Origin: an uncultured Gemmatimonadales bacterium
GTDB lineage: Bacteria; Gemmatimonadota; Gemmatimonadetes; Gemmatimonadales; GWC2-71-9
Length of the DNA: 64,000 nucleotides
Assembly: GCA_963844035.1 (NCBI GenBank)
Contig: CAWJMT010000004.1
Coordinates: 352,001 to 416,000, forward strand
Direction of reading: 5' to 3'
Shown: positions 11,377-58,338 of the stretch, piece after piece
Numbering within the stretch: the first letter of the stretch is position 1
How the letters are laid out: every line of letters begins with the position of its first letter
The notes under the pieces: model-generated
The model's input: the letters and a program-made list of their open reading frames with translations, nothing else
The model's database searches: none
Told to the model about the DNA's origin: nothing
Made by a program: the position numbers and the translations under genes

Positions 11377-11456
11377 GGCCGACAAAGGCACACCCGGAGC
11401 GATCCGGGGCCGCAAAGCCAGGAGTCTCCCCCGGGGAGACCGTCCGGTTGCCGACG
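11377..11456 (+). promoter_or_regulatory. Cyclic di-GMP-I (GEMM-I) riboswitch
   Basis: AAGGCACACC-CGGA-GCGA-UCCG-GGGCCGCAAAGCC...GUCU...AGAC...GGUUGCCGA matches the GEMM-I pattern (GNRA-capped P2, GCAAAGCC junction, P3, GGUUGCCGA). Confidence 0.85.
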
Positions 11457-23107: not shown

Positions 23108-23290
23108 AGGCGAGCCGGTCTCCTGGCTCGAGGCAGCGCCATCGGCCTTCCCAGGGGGGCTATGCACATCCCCAGTGGCCAGACTTCGGTGGCGTCTTCC
23201 GCGGTGCTCCGCGGGCCTCTTACAGTGGCGGGGCCGCGCCGGTCTCACACCGGCTTCCGTATGGTCCGCCTGCGTCTGTTTTGGACTTCG
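23108..23290 (-). promoter_or_regulatory. Cobalamin riboswitch
   Basis: Minus strand reads GGAAGCCGGUG...CCGGCGCGGCCCCGCCACUGUAA...GCCACUGGG...GGGAAGGC...GAGCCAGGAGACCGGC (B12 box), upstream of the btu-like operon. Confidence 0.95.
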
Positions 23291-33092: not shown

Positions 33093-34980
33093 CTAGGGTG
33101 GGTTAACCCCGGGCCCACGGCCCGGGGGCTGCGCAGCAGAGCGAACGCCCGGCCGGTGCACCTCACACGTGTACGCCCCCTCGACCTCCACTAAGACCTC
33201 GAGGTGAGTGAGACAATGCCGCTGCCCGTCCGCGGCACACTCCCCTGAGTGCCCGGCGCAGACGACCTTGCCGCACGACGCGCACGCCCCGACCTCGTCC
33301 AACGCCAATAGCGTGTCCGGCTCGTAGGCGCAGCCCGCCACGTGCCGCGCGCACACCATGCGCCGCGACGTGTCGGTGCGGCGCAAATGCTGCGAGCAGT
33401 GCACCTGCCCATCCACCGCGCACACCGCCTGATGCTTCGTGCAGACCGACTTGTCGCAGCTGGCGCACTGCGTCACCTCGTCGATCCCGACCGGCTCGTT
33501 GCTCCCGCCCTCGCAGTACTTGAGGCACGCCGTACACAGGCGGCGACTGCCCTTCGGCGCGTCCGCGCTCGACTGCTCAGCATGGCGGTTGCACACCAGG
33601 CGGCCGCAGCTGCCGCACGGCGCGAGGCAGGTGACACACGCCGTGTGGTCACCCTCGGCGCACACCCCCTCGTGCTTCGTGCAGTAGTCGAATCGGCACG
33701 ACGGGCAGTTCCGCACGTGCTCCGCGCAGGCGGGCAGACTGTCCACTCGACATTCGGGCGTTCCATGCTGCGCACAGAAATCTTCTTTGCACACCGAGCA
33801 GCGGTACGAGCACGCTCCACACGAGCAGTGGTCGTGCTTGCAAACGACGAGTGCGTCGGGAACGACGCCGCACTGCGGGCACGTGAGAATCCAGTCGCCC
33901 GCGCCGCTCGATGAGCGCTGGGCGCTGAATGTGGCCCGGTGCCCCGTCGCCGATTCCAGCCGCCATTCGGCGCGCTGGATCAGGGCGGTGGCCTCGATCA
34001 GCTGCAGGGGGTGCACGATCGCGCGCACCTGGCTGCGGCGCACTTCCTCGGTGCGGCGCCGCTCGGCATGCGCCGTGACGGTGGCGATCGCGGCGTCGTC
34101 CGATTGCTCCCCCAGGACCGACGCGAAGTAGCGCTCGAGGCGGGCCAACTCGACGGCGAGTTGTTGCTCCGCCGTGGCGCGACGCGCCGCCACCCGCTCG
34201 GCTGACTTCTCCCGCAGGTTGGCGAGCAGCAACCGGAGCAGATCCTCGGGCTCTCGGGCCGGGACGGCTGCGGCCTTCACCTGAGACGCGTCCGCCGGAT
34301 CGATCAGGCCGGCCTCCAGGTCGCGGAACAGGCCAGCCAGATCGGCCGCGACGGGCGCGCCAGCCGACAGGTCGTACACGTCGCTTTCCACCACCGCTTC
34401 CTCGACGCCCGCCCCCGCCCGCAGCACCACGCGCGCAATCAACCGTCCCACTGGATGCACCGCCGAGCGCACGGTACCGGGCTTGGCGGTGCCGTCGCGT
34501 ACCGGAATGCTCAACTCGATGCGTTTGGCGTCGCTCGCGGCGCCCGGTGCGGCGCGATCAGACCGAGCGACAAGCGCGTGGCGCGCGCGCGGATCGCGTC
34601 CAGCAGCTGCGAGAGAAACGGGCTGCCGAGGATCGCGATCTCGGCGTCCCGGTCGCGCTCCAGCGCGTCGAGCGAGAACGCCACGCGCAGCGACTCGCGA
34701 TCCCGGAAAAAGCGCCGTTCGGACGGCGGCAGGTTCAGCTCATGGTGGTCGGCACCAAGGGTGGCCTGCTTCACGCGCGCCAAGCGGCAGTAGCGCTCGA
34801 GCAGCGGCCGGATCCGTGGGTCGGCGAGCGGATCGGCCTCGCCGGGGACAGCGGGCGCGGCCGACGCTGGACGCTTGACGCGTGGCTTACGAGCCTTGGT
34901 CTTGGTCGGTGCTTTCCGCTTAGGCGCCGGTTTCCGCTTGGCTTGCGGCTGTTGGGCTTGGCCTTCGGACGGCGCGTCAT
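33093..34980 (-). CDS. YqhG-like SNF2 partner with long C-terminal Cys/His repeat array, frameshifted
   Basis: Directly downstream of the SNF2 gene; LGSPFLSQLL; coiled coil ELARLERYF; repeated C-x2-C/D-x4-C-x2-H. Confidence 0.7.
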
Positions 34981-35068
34981 GCGAGATTGTCGCGGCTAAA
35001 GCCGCGGCTCGGCCCTGCCGCTGAAGCGGCGACGGAAGCCCGTTCACGGGCAGACGCCGAGCCGCGAT

Positions 35069-37168
35069 TCACGCGGCGTCCACCGTGATGTCCACCAGCG
35101 TCATGGGCAGGTGATCCACCTGCGCCACCAGCGTGATCACGCGTCCGGCGCTGGTCATGCCGCTGAGCCGCACCAGCTCGCCGTGCTGCGGATGGCGGCC
35201 GGCCGGAGTGACCGGGGTGGGGCCCGCGACCGGCTCGATCGACTCGAGCGCCTCGAGGATCTCGGGCACATGCACGCGGAGCTGTTGACGCTTCCGCTCC
35301 CAGCCCGGCGCCTTGACCACCTGGCTCGTGCCGAGTCCCAATCGCAACCGGCCCGGCACCGACAACGTCTCGAAGCGCCGTTCCAGCCGCATCGCGTTGT
35401 CGTCCGGCGCAATCAGCGAGTTGAGCTGCTCCTGCTCCTTGCCCACCGCGCTGCTGTGCTCAATGTCGGCCCCGATCGCTTCCACGCGGCGCGCGAAGTC
35501 TTGCTCGTTCTCAGCCGCGAGCCACTGTTCCGCGAGCCGGCCTTCGAAGTGCTGCGCGCCCCCGAAGTCCCCAAGGATCAGGTCCAGCTCGCCTACCACC
35601 AGCTCGAACAGCTTGATCTTGCGGTCGAGCAGCTGGAGGATGTACGCCTCGATCGTGCCCGACGCGGCGAGGTTGATGATGTGCACCTCACGCTTCTGCC
35701 CGATGCGGTGCAGCCGTCCGATGCGCTGCTCCACCACCATCGGGTTCCAGGGCAGGTCGTAGTTCACGAGCACGTTGCAGAACTGCAGGTTGCGGCCTTC
35801 GCTCCCCGCGCGCGTGGCGATCAGGACGCTGCGCTCGTCCTCGTGGAACGCGCGGATCCGCTTGTCGCGCTCGGGAGTCGAGTGCGCGCCCCAATACACG
35901 ATGGCTTGTCTGCCGAGCTTGGTGACGCGCTCGGCGATCAGGTCGACGGTCGGGCGGTGATCGCTGAAGACCAGGACCCGGCCGGGCGTTTCCTTGAGGA
36001 GCTTGGTCAACACCTCGAGCTTGGCGTGCTTCGTGATCTTCCGCGCCCGTTCTGCCAACTGGCGCGCCATGGTGCGGTACTGCGGGCTGACGTGCTCGCC
36101 TTTCGCGAGCTGCTCGAGCGACTCGCCCAGCGCGCGCGCCGAGGAGCAGAGCCGCTGCCGCAGGTGCAGCACCGCGAGCTGTACCGTTCCCTTGCGAGTC
36201 TTCGTCCCCTCCTCTTCCCCACTCGTCTCGACGAAGCCTTCGCGGTACAACCGCCGCAGAAAGTCCGTCGTGCGCTCGTACAGGTCCGCTTCGCCGGGGG
36301 TGAGCTTCACCTCGGGGTGGCGCGGCCGGCGCGGCGGCAGGTCCAGGTCGTCCACCACGCTCGAGCGCCGCGTGCGGATCATTACTTCGTGCGTCAGCAC
36401 CCGCAGCGCTTCGGGGTCGCGCGGCTGACGGTGGTCCCCTGACGTGAGGTGCTCGCGCTTGAACCCGTCCCAGGTGCCGAGCTGACCCGGCCGCAGCAGC
36501 GTGACCAGGTTGTACAGCTCGCGCAGGTCGTTCTGGAGTGGCGTGGCGGTGAGCAGCAGGATGAAGTCGCGCTCGATCTTCTCGATGAACTGGTAGGTCG
36601 CGCTGGTGTGGCTCTTCACCTTGTGCGCCTCGTCCACAATCACGAGGTCCCAGCGGTGCCGCAGGATCTCCTCGGCGTGGCGGCGGGTGCGCGCGCGGTC
36701 GTGCGACACGATCGCCTTGGTGACGCCCCGCCAGTCGTCGGGGTCGACCGGCGCCTCGAAGCGCTCGAAGAACTTCTCCTCCAGCTCCCCCTGCCATTGG
36801 CCCACCAGCGAAGCGGGCGTCAGGATCAGCGCGCGGCGCGCGAGCCCGCGGACCGCGAGCTCCTTATAGATGATGCTCGCTTCGATCGTCTTGCCGAGGC
36901 CCACTTCGTCGGCCAGGATGGCGCGGCCGCCCAGGTCGCGCAGCACCCGTTGGGCCACGTCGATCTGGTGGGGCAGCTCCTTGATCGCGTTGGCGTCGAG
37001 CGTGATCAGCCGGTCGAAGCCCGGGACCAGGGCGATGCGTTCCGCTTCGCGCCGTAGCTCGTACCAAGCGCGGCCAGCGGGCGGTTGTTTCAGCTGCTCG
37101 GCGAACACCTGGAGGGACTGCTCGTCGACGGCCCAGGAGTCGTCAGTTAGTTGGTTGGGTACGGTCAA
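35069..37168 (-). CDS. SNF2-family helicase (YqhH/RapA-like)
   Basis: ILADEVGLGKTIE, DEAH, LTATP, GSEGRNLQ, YDLPWNP..VEQRIGRLHRIGQ. Confidence 0.95.
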   Translation of the reverse strand: MTVPNQLTDDSWAVDEQSLQVFAEQLKQPPAGRAWYELRREAERIALVPGFDRLITLDANAIKELPHQIDVAQRVLRDLGGRAILADEVGLGKTIEASIIYKELAVRGLARRALILTPASLVGQWQGELEEKFFERFEAPVDPDDWRGVTKAIVSHDRARTRRHAEEILRHRWDLVIVDEAHKVKSHTSATYQFIEKIERDFILLLTATPLQNDLRELYNLVTLLRPGQLGTWDGFKREHLTSGDHRQPRDPEALRVLTHEVMIRTRRSSVVDDLDLPPRRPRHPEVKLTPGEADLYERTTDFLRRLYREGFVETSGEEEGTKTRKGTVQLAVLHLRQRLCSSARALGESLEQLAKGEHVSPQYRTMARQLAERARKITKHAKLEVLTKLLKETPGRVLVFSDHRPTVDLIAERVTKLGRQAIVYWGAHSTPERDKRIRAFHEDERSVLIATRAGSEGRNLQFCNVLVNYDLPWNPMVVEQRIGRLHRIGQKREVHIINLAASGTIEAYILQLLDRKIKLFELVVGELDLILGDFGGAQHFEGRLAEQWLAAENEQDFARRVEAIGADIEHSSAVGKEQEQLNSLIAPDDNAMRLERRFETLSVPGRLRLGLGTSQVVKAPGWERKRQQLRVHVPEILEALESIEPVAGPTPVTPAGRHPQHGELVRLSGMTSAGRVITLVAQVDHLPMTLVDITVDAA

Positions 37169-37216
37169 GCGTTGGCCCTAGAAGTCGGGGGCACAATATA
37201 GGGGATGATGCGGCTA

Positions 37217-37245
37217 TTGACTCGACGATTGCCGAATGCAACATT
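37217..37245 (+). promoter_or_regulatory. Putative sigma70-like promoter of the orphan antisense sRNA
   Basis: TTGACT-17nt-AACATT, same geometry as the three sister copies. Confidence 0.55.
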
Positions 37246-37251
37246 GGACGC

Positions 37252-37326
37252 ACGTGACGGGTCTCCGCGTGCGAGCCGTTCGCTACGCAGACCGAAAGCC
37301 GGGGGGGTAACCCTCCGGCTTTCGTT
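37252..37326 (+). ncRNA. Putative anti-tRNA antisense sRNA, orphan copy (predicted target anticodon GUC)
   Basis: ACGUGACGGGUCUCCGCGU + ...UUCGCUACGC hairpin + GAAAGCCGG...CCGGCUUUC terminator; homologous to 38537, 57464 and 58269. Confidence 0.6.
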
Positions 37327-37390
37327 ATTGTGGCGACGCCGTGCGCGTGACCCGACCGCCTGACCGCCGTATTATCCGACCACCGCTCTA

Positions 37391-38128
37391 CTATCGCGAC
37401 TCGACCGCCCGCCGCAGTGCCTCGATCTCGTGCCGCAACTTCGTCAGCGCGTCTTCCTGCCGGCGATTGGTGGGCCCCAGGAGCCACGTCGTGACGAACC
37501 CCGACAGGGTTCCGAACAGGCCTATCCCTGCGATCATGAGCAGCCCAGCGAGCATGCGCCCTTCGGGTGTTACCGGAAAGCGATCGCCGTAAGCGACGGT
37601 CGTGATGGTGGCCAGAGCCCACCAGAGCGCATCACCGGGCCCATTGATGTTGCCAACCGGCGGCCGTTCGATGTGCATGATCCCGATCGCTGCCGAGACG
37701 GTCACCAGCACTGACACGAGGCACACTGCGAGAGCCGCGCTCTCGGCCCGGCGATCGAGGATCATTGACGCGATCACCTTCGTAGCGCGAACGCTGCGCA
37801 TCACGCGCAGGATCCGAAACACTCGCGCGATGCGGCCTAACCGCAGGAAGCCAACCCAGCCGAAGACGTTGATCGTCGGAACGCTCGACACGAGGTCGAT
37901 CCAGCCCCAGGTCACGACGTAGCCCCAGCGGTTCTCCGCCTTGACGAGGTTGAACACGAAGTCGAACAGGAAGACAGCGCAGATGGCTGTGTCCACCCAG
38001 CCCAGCACCTGGCGGGTGTCTGGGTCCAACTGAACCACGACCTCGACCGCGAGAGCCGCGAGCGAGTACAGGCTCAGCCCGAGGATCACAAACTCGTAGG
38101 CGTTCAGGTCGGCGTGGCGCTTGTTCAT
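37391..38128 (-). CDS. Ion transporter / voltage-gated K+ channel-like protein
   Basis: S4-like LRLGRIARVFRILRVMR; pore DALWWALATITTVAYGDRFP. Confidence 0.9.
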   Translation of the reverse strand: MNKRHADLNAYEFVILGLSLYSLAALAVEVVVQLDPDTRQVLGWVDTAICAVFLFDFVFNLVKAENRWGYVVTWGWIDLVSSVPTINVFGWVGFLRLGRIARVFRILRVMRSVRATKVIASMILDRRAESAALAVCLVSVLVTVSAAIGIMHIERPPVGNINGPGDALWWALATITTVAYGDRFPVTPEGRMLAGLLMIAGIGLFGTLSGFVTTWLLGPTNRRQEDALTKLRHEIEALRRAVESR

Positions 38129-38160
38129 GGGGTGCCCTTAGGGTGAGCGGTGCGAATCAA

Positions 38161-38255
38161 ACTAGGCGCATAGACGCATAGACGCATAGGCACGCATAGA
38201 CGCGTAGGGACCGCCCGACCACCGCTTCGTCCAGCCCGGGGGTGAACCCACCCGG
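38161..38255. repeat. GACGCATA-type short tandem repeat plus REP-like CCCGGGGGTGAACCCACC element
   Basis: ACTAGGCGCATAGACGCATAGACGCATAGG...; related copy at 38631-38716. Confidence 0.65.
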
Positions 38256-38403
38256 ATTTTGTTGCGTGGGAAGGATCCGCTTCGCGCGCATTTCATCACC
38301 TGGATGACGCCGGGTGCGCACACAATGATCCCGCGGCTCGGTAGCACTTGTTGGGTGTCACGTCATGGCGCTTAGGCCATACCAAGGTCCGCAACCGCTC
38401 GGT

Positions 38404-38487
38404 GCCGGCGTGGCGGAATTGGTAGACGCGGATGCCCCACAAGCATCTGGGCGAAAGCCCGTGCGGGTTCGAATCCCGCCGCCGGCA
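38404..38487 (+). tRNA. Type II tRNA with tRNA-Leu body and CAC (Val) anticodon; C at position 33; CCA not encoded
   Basis: Acceptor GCCGGCG/CGCCGGC, D arm GCGGAAUUGGUAGACGC, anticodon arm GAUGC-CCCACAA-GCAUC, V arm GGGC-GAAA-GCCC, T arm GCGGG-UUCGAAU-CCCGC, A73. Confidence 0.85.
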
Positions 38488-38501
38488 CGGCCGTGCATCC
38501 C

Positions 38502-38530
38502 TTGTTCGAAGGAATGGGCGGCAGTATTTT
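38502..38530 (+). promoter_or_regulatory. Putative sigma70-like promoter of antisense sRNA 1
   Basis: TTGTTC-17nt-TATTTT, then 6 nt to the first complementary base (38537). Confidence 0.6.
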
Positions 38531-38536
38531 TGAGGC

Positions 38537-38610
38537 GCTTGTGGGGCATCCGCGTAGCCGATTTCGCTACGCCAAGAAAGCCGGGGGTGTAACCTCCGGC
38601 TTTCGCTTTT
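38537..38610 (+). ncRNA. Putative antisense sRNA against tRNA 38404-38487
   Basis: 38537-38555 is the exact reverse complement of 38426-38444; 38561-38573 pairs with 38407-38419 (2 G-U); ends in a GC hairpin plus U tract. Confidence 0.7.
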
Positions 38611-38630
38611 CCGGTTCAGCGTCGTGCCCT

Positions 38631-38716
38631 TACCCCGGGGTGCCGCCCCGGGGTGAACCCACCATCCTACTAGGCGCACAGGCGCAAAGACGCATAGGCG
38701 CATAGGACCGCCGACG
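38631..38716. repeat. REP-like palindrome plus GCGCATAG-type tandem repeat
   Basis: CCCCGGGG...CCCCGGGGTGAACCCACC followed by ACTAGGCGCACAGGCGCAAAGACGCATAGG. Confidence 0.6.
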
Positions 38717-38780
38717 CGCGGGCGGCGCGGCCGCCAGCGGTCCCCCTCCCCCCTCCCGCGTCCCTGCCGTACTCTTTTCC

Positions 38781-39266
38781 ATGCCCGCCTCCCTCCCCGC
38801 CCCCGGTGACCGCGTCCGCTCGCTCTGGCGCCGGCTTTCTCCGCTCCCCGGCGGCAAGACGCTGTTCAGTCTTTTGTTCGGCCGGATGGCGCCCTACACC
38901 GGGAAACTGGGCGCGCGGGTCGAGACCCTCGAGCCCGGGTTCTGCCGCGTGACCCTGCGCGACCGCCGCAGCGTGCGAAACCACCTCAATTCGATCCACG
39001 CGATGGCGCTCGCGAATCTTGCGGAGGCAGCGAGCGGGCTCGCCGTGGTCGCCGCGCTCCCGCCGGGCGTCCAGGGGATCGTCACCGGGTTCGCGATCAC
39101 CTATCAGAAGAAGGCGCGCGGCCAGCTGACGGCGGAATGTCGCGTGGACGTGGGAGCGGTGACGGCCGAGCGCGAGCAGCTGGCACAAGTTGCGATCAGC
39201 GACCCCGCTGGGGACGTGGTGGCACGAGCGACGGCCACCTGGCGCCTCCGGCCCCCGCGCGCATGA
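38781..39266 (+). CDS. Hotdog-fold thioesterase-like protein (DUF4442-like)
   Basis: APYTG, VRNHLNSIHAMALANLAE, YQKKARG. Confidence 0.88.
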   Translation: MPASLPAPGDRVRSLWRRLSPLPGGKTLFSLLFGRMAPYTGKLGARVETLEPGFCRVTLRDRRSVRNHLNSIHAMALANLAEAASGLAVVAALPPGVQGIVTGFAITYQKKARGQLTAECRVDVGAVTAEREQLAQVAISDPAGDVVARATATWRLRPPRA

Positions 39267-40297
39267 CCGCCCGACCGCCGCAGTTGTCTCTTGACCGCCC
39301 GACCGCCGCCTTGGGCGCCGCCCTCACGGACCAGCTCCGCATCCAAGTCCCCCTCATTTGCGGTGCCATGTACCCCTGCTCCAACCCCGAGCTCGTCGCG
39401 GCGGTCTCGGCCGCGGGCGGGATCGGGGTGGTGCAGCCGCTCTCGATGATCTACGTCTACCGCCACGACTTCCGTGCCGGACTGAAGCTCATCCGCCGCC
39501 TCACCGACAAACCGATCGGCATGAACGTACTGATCGAGCGCAGCTCGAAGCTGTACCTCGAGCGGATGTCGCGCTGGGTGGACATAGCATTGGAGGAGGG
39601 CGTCCGCTTCTTCGTGACCTCGCTCGGCAACCCGCGCTGGGTGGTAGAGCGCGTGGGACCGGTGGGGGGCGTGGTGTACCACGACGTGACCGAGCGGAAG
39701 TGGGCCGAGAAAGGCCTGGCGGGCGGGGTGCACGGCCTGATCGCCGTGAACGACCGCGCGGGCGGACATGCCGGCGGACTGAGCGCCGCGGCGCTGCTCG
39801 ATGAGTTGCGCGACCTGAACGTCCCCGTCGTCTGCGCGGGCGGCATCGGCGACGAGGCCGACTTCGTCGCCGCCCTGAAGCTCGGCTACGCCGGGGTCCA
39901 AATGGGGACCCGCTTTATCGCCACCACCGAATGCGGCGCGCACGACGACTACAAGCAGGCCATCGTCGCCGCGTCGGAGAGCGATATCGTGCACACCGAG
40001 CGCGTCACCGGCGTCCCACTCGCGGTGATCCGCACGCCCTACGTGGAGCGCGTCGGCACCCGCGCCGGCCCGATCGCCCGCTGGATGCTCCGCGGCCGCA
40101 ACACCAAGCACCTCATGCGCACCATCTACGCGCTGCGCTCGGTGTGGCAGCTCAAGCGCGCGTCCCTCGCCGGCGGCGCGCGCGAAGCAAGCTCGAAGGA
40201 CTATTGGCAGGCAGGGAAGAGCGTCGCAGGAATTGAGAGCATCGAGCCCGCCGGTGATATCGTGCGCAGGTTTGCGGAGGCGGCGCTTACCACGTAA
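39263..40297 (+). CDS. Nitronate monooxygenase family flavin oxidoreductase
   Basis: CGAMYPCSNPELVAAVS..GGIG, AGGH, AGGI, GVQMGTRFIAT, WQAGKSV. Confidence 0.92.
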   Translation: MTARPPQLSLDRPTAALGAALTDQLRIQVPLICGAMYPCSNPELVAAVSAAGGIGVVQPLSMIYVYRHDFRAGLKLIRRLTDKPIGMNVLIERSSKLYLERMSRWVDIALEEGVRFFVTSLGNPRWVVERVGPVGGVVYHDVTERKWAEKGLAGGVHGLIAVNDRAGGHAGGLSAAALLDELRDLNVPVVCAGGIGDEADFVAALKLGYAGVQMGTRFIATTECGAHDDYKQAIVAASESDIVHTERVTGVPLAVIRTPYVERVGTRAGPIARWMLRGRNTKHLMRTIYALRSVWQLKRASLAGGAREASSKDYWQAGKSVAGIESIEPAGDIVRRFAEAALTT

Positions 40298-56981: not shown

Positions 56982-57132
56982 TTTTCCCCGGGCTGACAGC
57001 CCGGGCTCGGCGCAAGAGTGCGCCCTGTAAGGGCGCACCCCGGGCCGAGCGCGCCCTCTTAGGGCGCGGGTTCACGAAACCCAGGATCCCACCGAAGTCA
57101 TCCGTGAACCCCGGGCTTGTGCCCGGGGTCAG
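56982..57132. repeat. ~150 bp palindromic REP-like repeat, copy A
   Basis: Nested palindromes CCCGGGCT..AGCCCGGG, GTGCGCCCT..AGGGCGCAC, CCCCGGGC..GCCCGGGG; near-identical direct copy at 57959-58109. Confidence 0.85.
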
Positions 57133-57327
57133 TAGAGGCTCCTCCGTCTTTTACCAGCCGGGCGCGACATGTCGCGCCCCTACACCCGGCGTGGTTTCGT
57201 CCCCCCTCGCGTGTTTCGGGCACCTCAACCCTTCGGTATGGCTTGCATGGTCTCGACGTGGGCGGCAGCACGTATGGGATCACGCGTCTCGGCCTTCGGG
57301 ATTGCCTGGGTTCGCAGCCGGAAAGGT

Positions 57328-57411
57328 GCTGGTGTGGCGAAACAGGTAAACGCGGAGACCTCACACGTCTCTGGGCGAAAGCCCTTGTGGGTTCGAATCC
57401 CACCACCAGCA
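57328..57411 (+). tRNA. Type II tRNA with tRNA-Leu body and CAC (Val) anticodon; CCA not fully encoded
   Basis: Acceptor GCUGGUG/CACCAGC, D arm GCGAAACAGGUAAACGC, anticodon arm GAGAC-CUCACAC-GUCUC, V arm GGGC-GAAA-GCCC, T arm GUGGG-UUCGAAU-CCCAC, A73. Confidence 0.88.
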
Positions 57412-57428
57412 CCCTCCCCGCACCACTC

Positions 57429-57457
57429 TTGACTCGGCGATGAGCCGAGATGAAGTT
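57429..57457 (+). promoter_or_regulatory. Putative sigma70-like promoter of antisense sRNA 2
   Basis: TTGACT-17nt-GAAGTT, then 6 nt to the first complementary base (57464). Confidence 0.55.
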
Positions 57458-57463
57458 GTCACT

Positions 57464-57541
57464 ACGTGTGAGGTCTCCGCGTAGTGCGCCGTTCGCTACG
57501 CTGCTGAAGGCCGGAGGGGCAACCCTCCGGCTTTCGCATTT
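57464..57541 (+). ncRNA. Putative antisense sRNA against tRNA 57328-57411
   Basis: 57464-57482 is the exact reverse complement of 57350-57368; 57492-57501 pairs with 57332-57341 (2 G-U); GCCGGAGGG/CCCUCCGGC terminator. Confidence 0.7.
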
Positions 57542-57611: not shown

Positions 57612-57947
57612 CGTCCGCGCGCACTTTGCGACCGTCAGCGAGCATCTTCCAATTGTCCGCGCGCACGTTGTGATCGTCAGCGGGCATCTTCCGACTGTCC
57701 GTGCACACTTTGCGACCGTCAGCGAGCATCTTGCAACTGTCCGCGCACGTCTTTCCGCTGTCAGCGCACACTTTGCGACTGTCCGCAGGCACTGGGGGAC
57801 TGTCCGCGCGTTCTTGGGCGTGATCCGGGGACACTTTGCAAACGACAGAGCGCACTGGGCGATTGTCCGAGCGCTTTGGGGGACGGTCCGGGGACATCGG
57901 GGGATCGTCAGCGCGTCTCTTGCAACAATCCGAGCATTCCTCGGGCC
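57612..57947. repeat. Degenerate 21-bp tandem repeat, 16 units
   Basis: Units such as CGTCCGCGCGCACTTTGCGAC and CGTCAGCGAGCATCTTCCAAT in strict 21-nt register; heptad peptides on both strands. Confidence 0.85.
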
Positions 57948-57958
57948 GAACCGCGTCC

Positions 57959-58109
57959 TTTTCCCGGGCTCATAGCCCGGGCTCGGCGCGAATGTGCGCC
58001 CTGTAAGGGCGCACCCCAGGCCGAGCGCGCCCTCTCAGGGCGCGGGTTCACGAAACCCAAGATCCCGCAGAAGTCATCCCGTGAACCCCGGGCTTGCGCC
58101 CGGGGTCAG
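57959..58109. repeat. ~150 bp palindromic REP-like repeat, copy B
   Basis: Direct repeat of 56982-57132. Confidence 0.85.
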
Positions 58110-58186
58110 CACAGACGGCGACGACGTGACAACCCGACCGCCCGACCGCCGCCTTTGTGGTTTGACCGCCTGACCGCCGCATCACA

Positions 58187-58216
58187 TTGTGGGTTCGAGT
58201 CCCACCACCAGCACCC
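58187..58216 (+). pseudogene. 3' fragment (T arm plus acceptor strand) of the CAC tRNA
   Basis: TTGTGGGTTCGAGTCCCACCACCAGCACCC, one mismatch to 57385-57414. Confidence 0.8.
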
Positions 58217-58268
58217 CCACTCTTAGGTGTCCATTGACTCGGCCGCGGCAATTCACGATGTTTTCACT

Positions 58269-58338
58269 GTGTGAGATCTCTGCGTAGCCAGTTTCGCTAC
58301 GCCAAGAAAGCCGGGGAGCGTAACGCTCTCCGGCTTTT
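58269..58338 (+). ncRNA. Putative antisense sRNA copy 3 (promoter TTGACT-17-GATGTT at 58234-58262)
   Basis: GUGUGAGAUCUCUGCGUAGC...GCUACGCCAAGAAAGCCGG...CCGGCUUUU. Confidence 0.65.

Follow-up and report, generated by a model that had tools for sequence, protein, structure and literature searches.

We believe that the unit at positions 37217-37329 of the window (the whole stretch of 64,000 nucleotides of DNA that was analysed) is probably an intact-looking, sRNA-only copy of a module that couples a mis-sense leucine tRNA to an antisense RNA. It would be what is left of such a module after loss of the tRNA, that is, its antidote-only part, and it possibly has a protective role. The complete module consists of a tRNA gene and, about 40 nt further downstream on the same strand, an sRNA gene that has a putative promoter and a terminator of its own. 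The tRNA combines a leucine-type body with an anticodon for one of the GNN codons (Val, Ala, Gly, Asp or Glu), and the sRNA is an antisense copy of the 5' half of this tRNA, with a seed over nt 23-40, including the seven loop bases of the anticodon arm, and a hairpin (hairpin 1) over the D arm. The sRNA would pair with its own tRNA or with the precursor of that tRNA; the pairing would unfold or destroy the tRNA and so keep a leucine-charged mis-sense tRNA from translation, and the pair would act as an RNA toxin and an RNA antidote. The lone unit would specify a GUC (Asp) partner, absent from the assembly and present in relatives, and may persist because it is cheap, or as a protection against an incoming GUC module.

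All parts of the lone unit lie on the forward (+) strand. A promoter-like block (37217-37245) consists of TTGACT at 37217-37222, a 17-nt spacer and AACATT at 37240-37245, with 6 nt to the seed. The 19-nt seed at the 5' end (37252-37270) is antisense to tRNA nt 23-41, with a loop CCGUCAC (anticodon GUC) and an anticodon stem of the tRNA-2 type. Hairpin 1 (37267-37288) overlaps the 3' end of the seed; in the family this part corresponds to the D arm of the tRNA in antisense. An intrinsic terminator (37293-37329), found by a consensus scan, closes the unit with a 14-pair GC-rich stem at 37293-37324 and a T-rich tail. The preliminary description had given this same layout, from the -35-like hexamer, 17 nt, -10-like hexamer and 6 nt through seed and hairpin to terminator, and rereading of the sequence confirms it. 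The putative promoter agrees with the sigma-70 consensus at 8 of 12 positions where a simple scan demands 9, so that the scan does not call it, and the -10 hexamer is weak. Its geometry is identical to that of the block in the paired units (-35-like, 17 nt, -10-like, 6-7 nt to the seed), and its status as a promoter rests on positional homology with this family-conserved block. In hairpin 1 of the lone unit, one nt is deleted and one pair is non-standard. Against R1, the covariance model built from 38 sRNA sequences, the unit scores 63.3 bits (E = 3.4e-14), a value that is not independent because the unit is among the 38 training rows; the other three copies of the window score 66.9-73.4 bits. 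The terminator was called separately from this model. Aligned to the two units of the window that follow a tRNA, the unit shows 76% mean column identity.

It is equally clear that the unit stands by itself. ARAGORN and Rfam find no tRNA at 36000-38403, as had been claimed from the letters, and neither a tRNA nor a tRNA fragment occurs upstream, where a cognate tRNA would be placed at about 40 nt; the unit is therefore an sRNA-only member of the family. On the opposite strand an SNF2-helicase gene starts 49 nt before the promoter, and an ion-channel gene follows downstream. In the same-genus genome G006 the SNF2 gene is 84% identical and the block is common up to about 37203, beyond which the sequence is unrelated; thus homology ends just before the unit, which borders on a variable region. 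In one bog metagenome run, X4, a related strain has 37214-37325 with 6 differences over its 112 nt, a divergence similar to that of the flanking genes. A look for RNA runs that contain 36000-39500 found none. None of the contigs of four DNA runs, which are short, joins the unit to a tRNA. In the block at 33093-37168 (minus strand), shared with G006 up to the edge of the unit, the SNF2/helicase gene is followed by two ORFs (178 and 473 aa) that match nothing in Pfam.

The window contains two tRNAs only (ARAGORN, Rfam), each of about 85 nt with a long variable arm and each called as Val (CAC). The first, tRNA-1 (38404-38488, +; ARAGORN, Rfam 56.1 bits), is leucine-type with C33, and is followed by the promoter block and cognate sRNA at 38502-38612 (+), the seed of which (38537-38555) is 100% complementary to 38426-38444. 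The second, tRNA-2 (57327-57414, +; ARAGORN, Rfam 59 bits), is also leucine-type, and its promoter block and sRNA are at 57429-57541 (+), with a seed at 57464-57482 that is 100% complementary to 57350-57368. The fourth sRNA copy (58232-58338, +; 66.9 bits) has a seed that implies CAC and no intact tRNA; it is preceded by a tRNA 3' fragment (T arm and 3' strand of the acceptor) at 58187-58216 (+), which corresponds to the last 30 nt of a tRNA and is 97% identical to 57385-57414.

A profile of three window units finds seven sRNA copies in the source genome at E <= 1e-9 (assembly of 3.47 Mb in 39 contigs, 83.7% complete). Four of the seven are 35-40 nt downstream of a long-arm tRNA, namely the two pairs of the window and those at C27 106399 (CAC) and C27 109280 (UGC, Ala); the remaining three, without an intact tRNA, are the unit under study, the copy at 58232-58338 and one on C27 with a seed implying CGC. 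In each paired unit the first 19 nt are the reverse complement of nt 23-41 of its own tRNA, with 100% agreement for both window pairs. Four further long ARAGORN calls (C3 289541, C4 258731, C4 295294 and C31 135238) have no family sequence and no sRNA, and are false positives by eye. Concerning assembly G000, the same tRNA runs (Trp, Glu, Glu, Lys; Leu-UAG) occur on two contigs each (C5/C21; C4/C5), which suggests redundancy or a strain mixture in the assembly.

The match between sRNA and tRNA extends well beyond these few loci. In an alignment of 83 modules from relatives and metagenomes, pairing at the 19 intermolecular positions reaches 90.8%; shuffling of the partners gives 69.9% (with the observed value attained in 0 of 500 shuffles), and sliding the two strands by 1-3 columns gives 30-41%. 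The paired percentage is inflated because most of the modules were chosen by a complementarity of at least 15/19. Changes on both sides are found in 320 cells, where 106 are expected. The sRNA follows the anticodon of its tRNA in 82 of 83 rows at nt 34 and in 83 of 83 at nt 35, and the anticodon stem of the tRNA itself is 98.1% paired in the same alignment. Among 89 distinct modules, selected in the same way and therefore subject to the same inflation, there are 48 different anticodon stems, and seed pairing is near 100% at all seven loop bases. BLAST of 61 related genomes with the tRNA-2 module gave 20 further long-arm tRNAs with non-leucine anticodons, and all 20, found through the tRNA part, have a downstream sRNA complementary to their own tRNA, though the anticodon stems differ; this result is independent of the 15/19 threshold.

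Predicted energies point in the same direction. For each sRNA of the source genome that has a tRNA, this tRNA gives the strongest predicted duplex, and co-folding gives the tRNA-sRNA heteroduplex a predicted advantage of 25-35 kcal/mol over the two RNAs folded separately. The preliminary description had noticed the complementarity to the anticodon arm, which is indeed present, but it described too little of it, since the antisense region spans most of the 5' half of the tRNA. The region of hairpin 1 is complementary to tRNA nt 5-20, with a mean predicted energy of -25.5 kcal/mol against -15.7 kcal/mol for shuffled sRNA, and differences in the D stem among lineages are mirrored in the sRNA. As hairpin 1 is antisense to the D arm and part of the acceptor strand, the sRNA amounts to an inverted copy of tRNA nt 5-41, approximately, plus a promoter and a terminator. 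In our opinion base pairing of the sRNA with the tRNA is well supported by such sequence comparisons, and from it we infer control of the mis-sense tRNA by the sRNA. Upstream of the tRNAs, at 57255-57326, 38335-38403 and most family loci, there is also a conserved leader of about 60 nt that resembles a diverged copy of the 5' part of the sRNA: a motif like the seed lies 55-60 nt ahead of the tRNA, and a short hairpin comes next. The motif does not track the anticodon, and as a candidate second antisense element the leader was rejected (12.76 of 19 positions complementary to the own arm, 12.54 to arms of other loci).

One may ask whether the two arms could be no more than an inverted repeat at the level of DNA, maintained by gene conversion or recombination, with no RNA-RNA interaction at all. 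The arms are about 95 nt apart on one molecule, as such an explanation would have it, and an excess of G-U over A-C mismatches, which would mark selection at the RNA level, is slight: 63:43 with Watson-Crick-only selection of modules (p = 0.06, the rows not being independent) and 65:43 with the biased selection. However, the downstream arm lies inside a unit that has a conserved promoter block and a terminator with compensatory changes in 12 of its 13 stem pairs, and such units survive intact without the other arm. The sRNA has a conserved structure of its own, with 90.2% of the cells paired in the 38-row alignment and both-sided changes in 16 of 20 pairs, matched by 0 of 500 shuffles. Moreover, the genes around the modules (SNF2 helicase, ion channel, DUF4442, DUF2779, sigma-54 activator, BrkB and others) have in the four contexts examined neither a conserved protein neighbour nor a mobile-element gene, recombinases and transposases included. 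We therefore regard the DNA-level explanation as very improbable and continue with RNA partners.

The anticodons of the family are variable, as the preliminary description had supposed. In the source genome and the 61 relatives, with searches in which no anticodon was fixed, 27 intact tRNAs divide into CGC (9), GGC (7), CAC (6), GUC (2), UGC (1), GCC (1) and CUC (1), while C36 and A37 are present in all of them and in all 27 the tRNA is directly upstream of its sRNA. The sRNA model has matches at E <= 0.01 in 35 of the 61 related genomes. Of the 33 strong matches examined outside the source genome, 21 have an intact tRNA upstream (CGC 8, GGC 7, CAC 3, GUC 2, GCC 1; one of the GGC modules is that of genome G020, marked unpublished), 6 have no tRNA and 3 are beside a broken tRNA, the rest being one at a contig end and two doubtful. 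Of the three broken tRNAs, one has a T-arm insertion and a loop that mismatches the seed, one is without its 5' part and one consists of a 3' part only. T-arm insertions occur in two family tRNAs, of about 70 nt in L182 (G050:C164:1-673) and about 22 nt in L284; the anticodon loop of L182 has ceased to fit the sRNA next to it, which is intact. Where a broken tRNA stands beside an intact sRNA, it shows that loss of the tRNA recurs and that the route to a relic does happen.

In sum over the evaluable copies, an intact tRNA is missing from 3 of 7 sRNAs in the source genome and from 9 of 30 in the relatives (3 of these 9 beside a broken tRNA). Copies with the sRNA only are thus common, and they occur in well-assembled relatives also, for example in G046 (98% completeness), whereas a tRNA-only copy of the family was seen neither in the source genome nor in the 61 relatives. 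This asymmetry is what a poison and its antidote would predict, and it is the one observation from which we infer toxicity of the family tRNAs; it says nothing on whether lone copies are retained for protection, a role that they could nevertheless have.

Wider scans place the family in context. In a named collection, 18 of the 21 paired loci that bear a title are from Gemmatimonadota-labelled MAGs. With scan patterns that both forced C36 and A37, long-arm leucine-type tRNAs reading GNN codons had no complementary downstream unit in 44 of 92 cases in the genome scan (loci L031-L148) and in 57 among the 120 matches listed in the metagenome scan (loci L202-L321). The records of such sRNA-less long-arm tRNAs are mostly titled as Patescibacteria groups, Chloroflexi, Alphaproteobacteria and Planctomycetota. 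At least one of the 44 (L090, a Gemmatimonadota-labelled module) in fact has a shifted seed, whose partners are the anticodon loop and the 3' strand of the stem, the usual partners being the 5' strand and the loop.

What does the lone unit specify? The reverse complement of its seed equals the tRNA-2 arm (57350-57368) except at nt 33-35, and the implied loop CCGUCAC, with the anticodon GUC that had been read from it, retains C36 and A37. The unseen GUC member that had been predicted on this ground does exist, in the genomes G038, G059 and G082 and at the metagenome locus L236, but not in the source assembly. G038 and G059, from the same order, each have a module of a GUC tRNA with its own sRNA. 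The arm pattern proposed for a search finds an exact match in L236, and in 400 genomes of the order it has six matches with one mismatch, only one of which is a true tRNA, in a module of G082 (same family); the other five are coding-like sequence without a tRNA. In metagenomes, a scan for a GUC loop behind a leucine-type D arm gave at least 120 stretches, at least 63 of them with a complementary downstream seed, and the loop of one of its loci, L289, is CCGUCAC. The sRNA seeds of four GUC modules (L228, L232, L317 and L311) are 1 nt from the seed of our unit; the differing base is opposite nt 33, where the G of our unit could pair with C or U. Finally, the strongest duplex predicted for the unit is with a GUC tRNA, that of L236 (-41.3 kcal/mol), compared with -31.1 kcal/mol for tRNA-2. 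The ordinary tRNA-Asp of the genome, considered as a target, was rejected (-26.7 kcal/mol, no arm match). With the GUC prediction borne out, the seed can serve as a trace of a tRNA missing from the genome.

It may be objected that the partner was not lost, and that a long-arm GUC tRNA is encoded in the unassembled part of the genome, on a plasmid or on a mobile element, with the lone unit acting in trans. The unit looks intact, the assembly is incomplete and divided into 39 contigs, and tRNAs and repeats are often missing from assemblies. However, ARAGORN finds no long-arm GUC tRNA in the 83.7% complete assembly, and a search of its 3.47 Mb for the arm with up to 4 mismatches returns the unit itself and the tRNA-2 pair (3 mismatches), all other matches coinciding with no tRNA call. 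The arrangement with the tRNA directly upstream, seen in 27 of 27 intact cases, also speaks against a partner at a distance, and so do the sRNA-only copies in genomes as well assembled as G046. In our opinion a partner elsewhere is quite unlikely.

A second objection would be that the unit is dead, a remnant that serves no function now, the seed changes being ordinary divergence and the likeness to GUC seeds a coincidence. By body and promoter the nearest relative of the unit is the tRNA-2 unit (identity 0.82 and 0.75), and since this is in the same genome, the lone unit should derive from a local lineage that changed its anticodon. Indeed, because the two units have diverged by 18-25% in body and promoter, three changes in a seed of 19 nt are no more than expected, and the deletion in hairpin 1 and the weak promoter could also be signs of decay. 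What does not fit decay is where the changes are. All three are at loop nt 33-35, which vary in the family, and none is at the 12 stem-pairing positions; only about 10 of the 969 ways of placing three changes in 19 positions fall inside the five variable loop positions, so the clustering is non-random. The retention of the invariant C36 and A37, the distance of 1 nt to true GUC modules, the intact terminator and promoter geometry, and a copy in strain X4 no more diverged than its flanking genes likewise count against a dead remnant, which we consider unlikely.

We return to the preferred reading, a relic that kept its antidote, and to the nature of the lost partner. Outside the anticodon arm, the four family tRNAs of the source genome are nearest to its own tRNA-Leu genes (0.74-0.82 identity). 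Family tRNAs have A73, a leucine-type D arm and a long variable arm, features that reportedly define tRNA-Leu identity in work on E. coli and Aquifex, and none of the four has G3:U70. Their anticodons (CAC, CGC, GGC, UGC, GUC, GCC, CUC) are not leucine anticodons. LeuRS does not read the anticodon, and leucine charging of the family tRNAs would therefore be expected from their sequences. A dedicated paralogue of LeuRS was not found: a single locus of the assembly is above the LeuRS cut-off, and no synthetase domain was found among the neighbours of the four modules. The codons that would be read, GCG, GCC, GUG, GGC, GAG and GAC, rank 1, 2, 5, 4, 8 and 9 in usage by a rough count over 671 long ORFs. 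U33 is near-universal in tRNAs, and 25 of 89 family tRNAs have C33, which may weaken their decoding. Bases other than U33 are also noted in a review of further natural mistranslating tRNAs (PMC11415595).

Could the module then be a device for regulated mistranslation or for tRNA supply, and not a toxin with an antidote? In that case the lone sRNA would regulate, for example, tRNA-2 by imperfect pairing, or an mRNA. The duplex of the unit with tRNA-2 is predicted to be about as stable as the cognate pair of the UGC module (-31.3 kcal/mol), and natural mistranslating tRNAs without U33 are considered to be tolerated in Streptomyces (PMC11415595). On the other hand, seeds vary widely among loci and are matched to the neighbouring tRNA only, which speaks against an mRNA target common to them, and the patchy, multi-copy spread in variable regions together with the asymmetry of loss fits a selfish module better. 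Such a regulatory device is, in our judgement, decidedly unlikely.

A bolder extension of the antidote reading can be offered as a tentative possibility. The modules could form a class of RNA-only toxin-antidote elements, serving addiction or abortive infection, in which a leucine-charged mis-sense tRNA is set against its antisense RNA, switching of the anticodon evades existing antidotes and lone sRNAs are retained as immunity genes. The poison would then target the GNN codons most used by the cell, and the genome would hold a repertoire of antidotes (CAC, UGC, CGC and GUC) against modules that circulate in the population.

How does the module relate to known systems? In type I toxin-antitoxin systems such as hok/sok, an antisense RNA with its own promoter neutralises a neighbouring target by pairing, and antitoxin-only remnants occur. 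The module resembles these in its adjacent small antisense RNA with a promoter of its own and in its antidote-only remnants, but the target of hok/sok is the mRNA of a small toxin, while here it is a tRNA (56-59 bits, RF00005) and there is no peptide gene. Both toxin and antitoxin are RNA in type VIII systems (CreT/CreA, SdsR/RyeA), where CreT ties up a rare tRNA and CreA works by way of Cascade. Two RNA partners and an attack on translation would be common to both, the toxicity of the module being presumed; the difference is that the presumed toxin of the module is itself a tRNA and that the antidote would pair directly with it. T-box leaders, which like some other RNAs read a tRNA anticodon, pair over 3-4 nt with a folded tRNA and sense its charging. 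As in the module, an RNA there matches the anticodon of one tRNA and a change of anticodon demands a matching change in the RNA; however, at least 18 nt are complementary in the modules, stem included, which requires unfolding of the tRNA.

Mis-sense tRNAs, too, have precedents. The nev-tRNAs of nematodes are said to be charged with leucine. According to PMC3333845 they belong to class II, with a long arm, and their anticodons stand for neither Leu nor Ser; the long arm and the non-Leu/Ser anticodon are shared with the module tRNAs. They differ in being eukaryotic, and they are not known to have an antisense partner. The tRNAProX/ProRSx system of Streptomyces and Kitasatospora (PMC11415595) comprises natural tRNAs with the body of one amino acid and the anticodon of another, and the modules are similar in this mismatch, in an unusual base 33 and in a patchy distribution among soil bacteria. 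According to the same source, tRNAProX is proline-type and has a dedicated synthetase gene alongside, whereas the modules are leucine-type, with one LeuRS in the assembly, no synthetase gene nearby and an antisense RNA as the partner. The module shares one half with mistranslating tRNAs and the other with antisense or RNA-RNA toxin-antitoxins, and fits neither.

The family of sRNA/tRNA modules is apparently undescribed. Rfam 15 has no family for the sRNA, and a full-text search of the literature, with subscription journals largely outside it, brought up no paper in which a tRNA gene is paired with a gene for an antisense sRNA. If our reading is true, a tRNA would serve as a weapon or a switch that is disarmed by a dedicated antisense RNA, a combination new to work on toxin-antitoxins and on mistranslation alike. 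It would also imply a new mode of tRNA control, unfolding by an RNA that reads the anticodon, and would provide natural orthogonal pairs of tRNA and anti-tRNA with programmable specificity. Deliberate mistranslation in an environmental phylum, that of the Gemmatimonadota-labelled MAGs, would become directly testable.

Some further observations concern the surroundings of the modules. The 16-nt GC-rich word GACCGCCYGACCRCCG has 15 sites at 31763-58179, where 1.0 is expected, for example at 37354-37369, 38209-38224, 58136-58151 and 58164-58179; its sites are often in pairs 28 nt apart, and it adjoins 3 of the 4 sRNA units of the window. The tRNA-2 module is bracketed by a direct repeat of 155 nt (56983-57137 and 57959-58114, 91-92% identity), a 21-nt tandem repeat array occupies 57613-57935 within the bracketed region, and the second copy of the 155-nt repeat is followed by the tRNA fragment and then by the second lone sRNA. 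On either side of the tRNA-1 module, 500 nt apart, are runs of an 8-nt repeat (38164-38225 and 38672-38733), and copies of a short palindromic element are at 38229-38252 and 38640-38663. A Y RNA-like assignment (YrlA, RF02553) of 38425-38559 was rejected, with a score of 21.4 bits against a gathering threshold of 69 and no TROVE protein found in the assembly. Elsewhere in the window there are a cobalamin riboswitch at 23118-23258 (minus strand, 59.7 bits) and a c-di-GMP-I-GGC riboswitch at 11378-11456 (plus strand), the latter at 59.6 bits barely over its threshold of 59.
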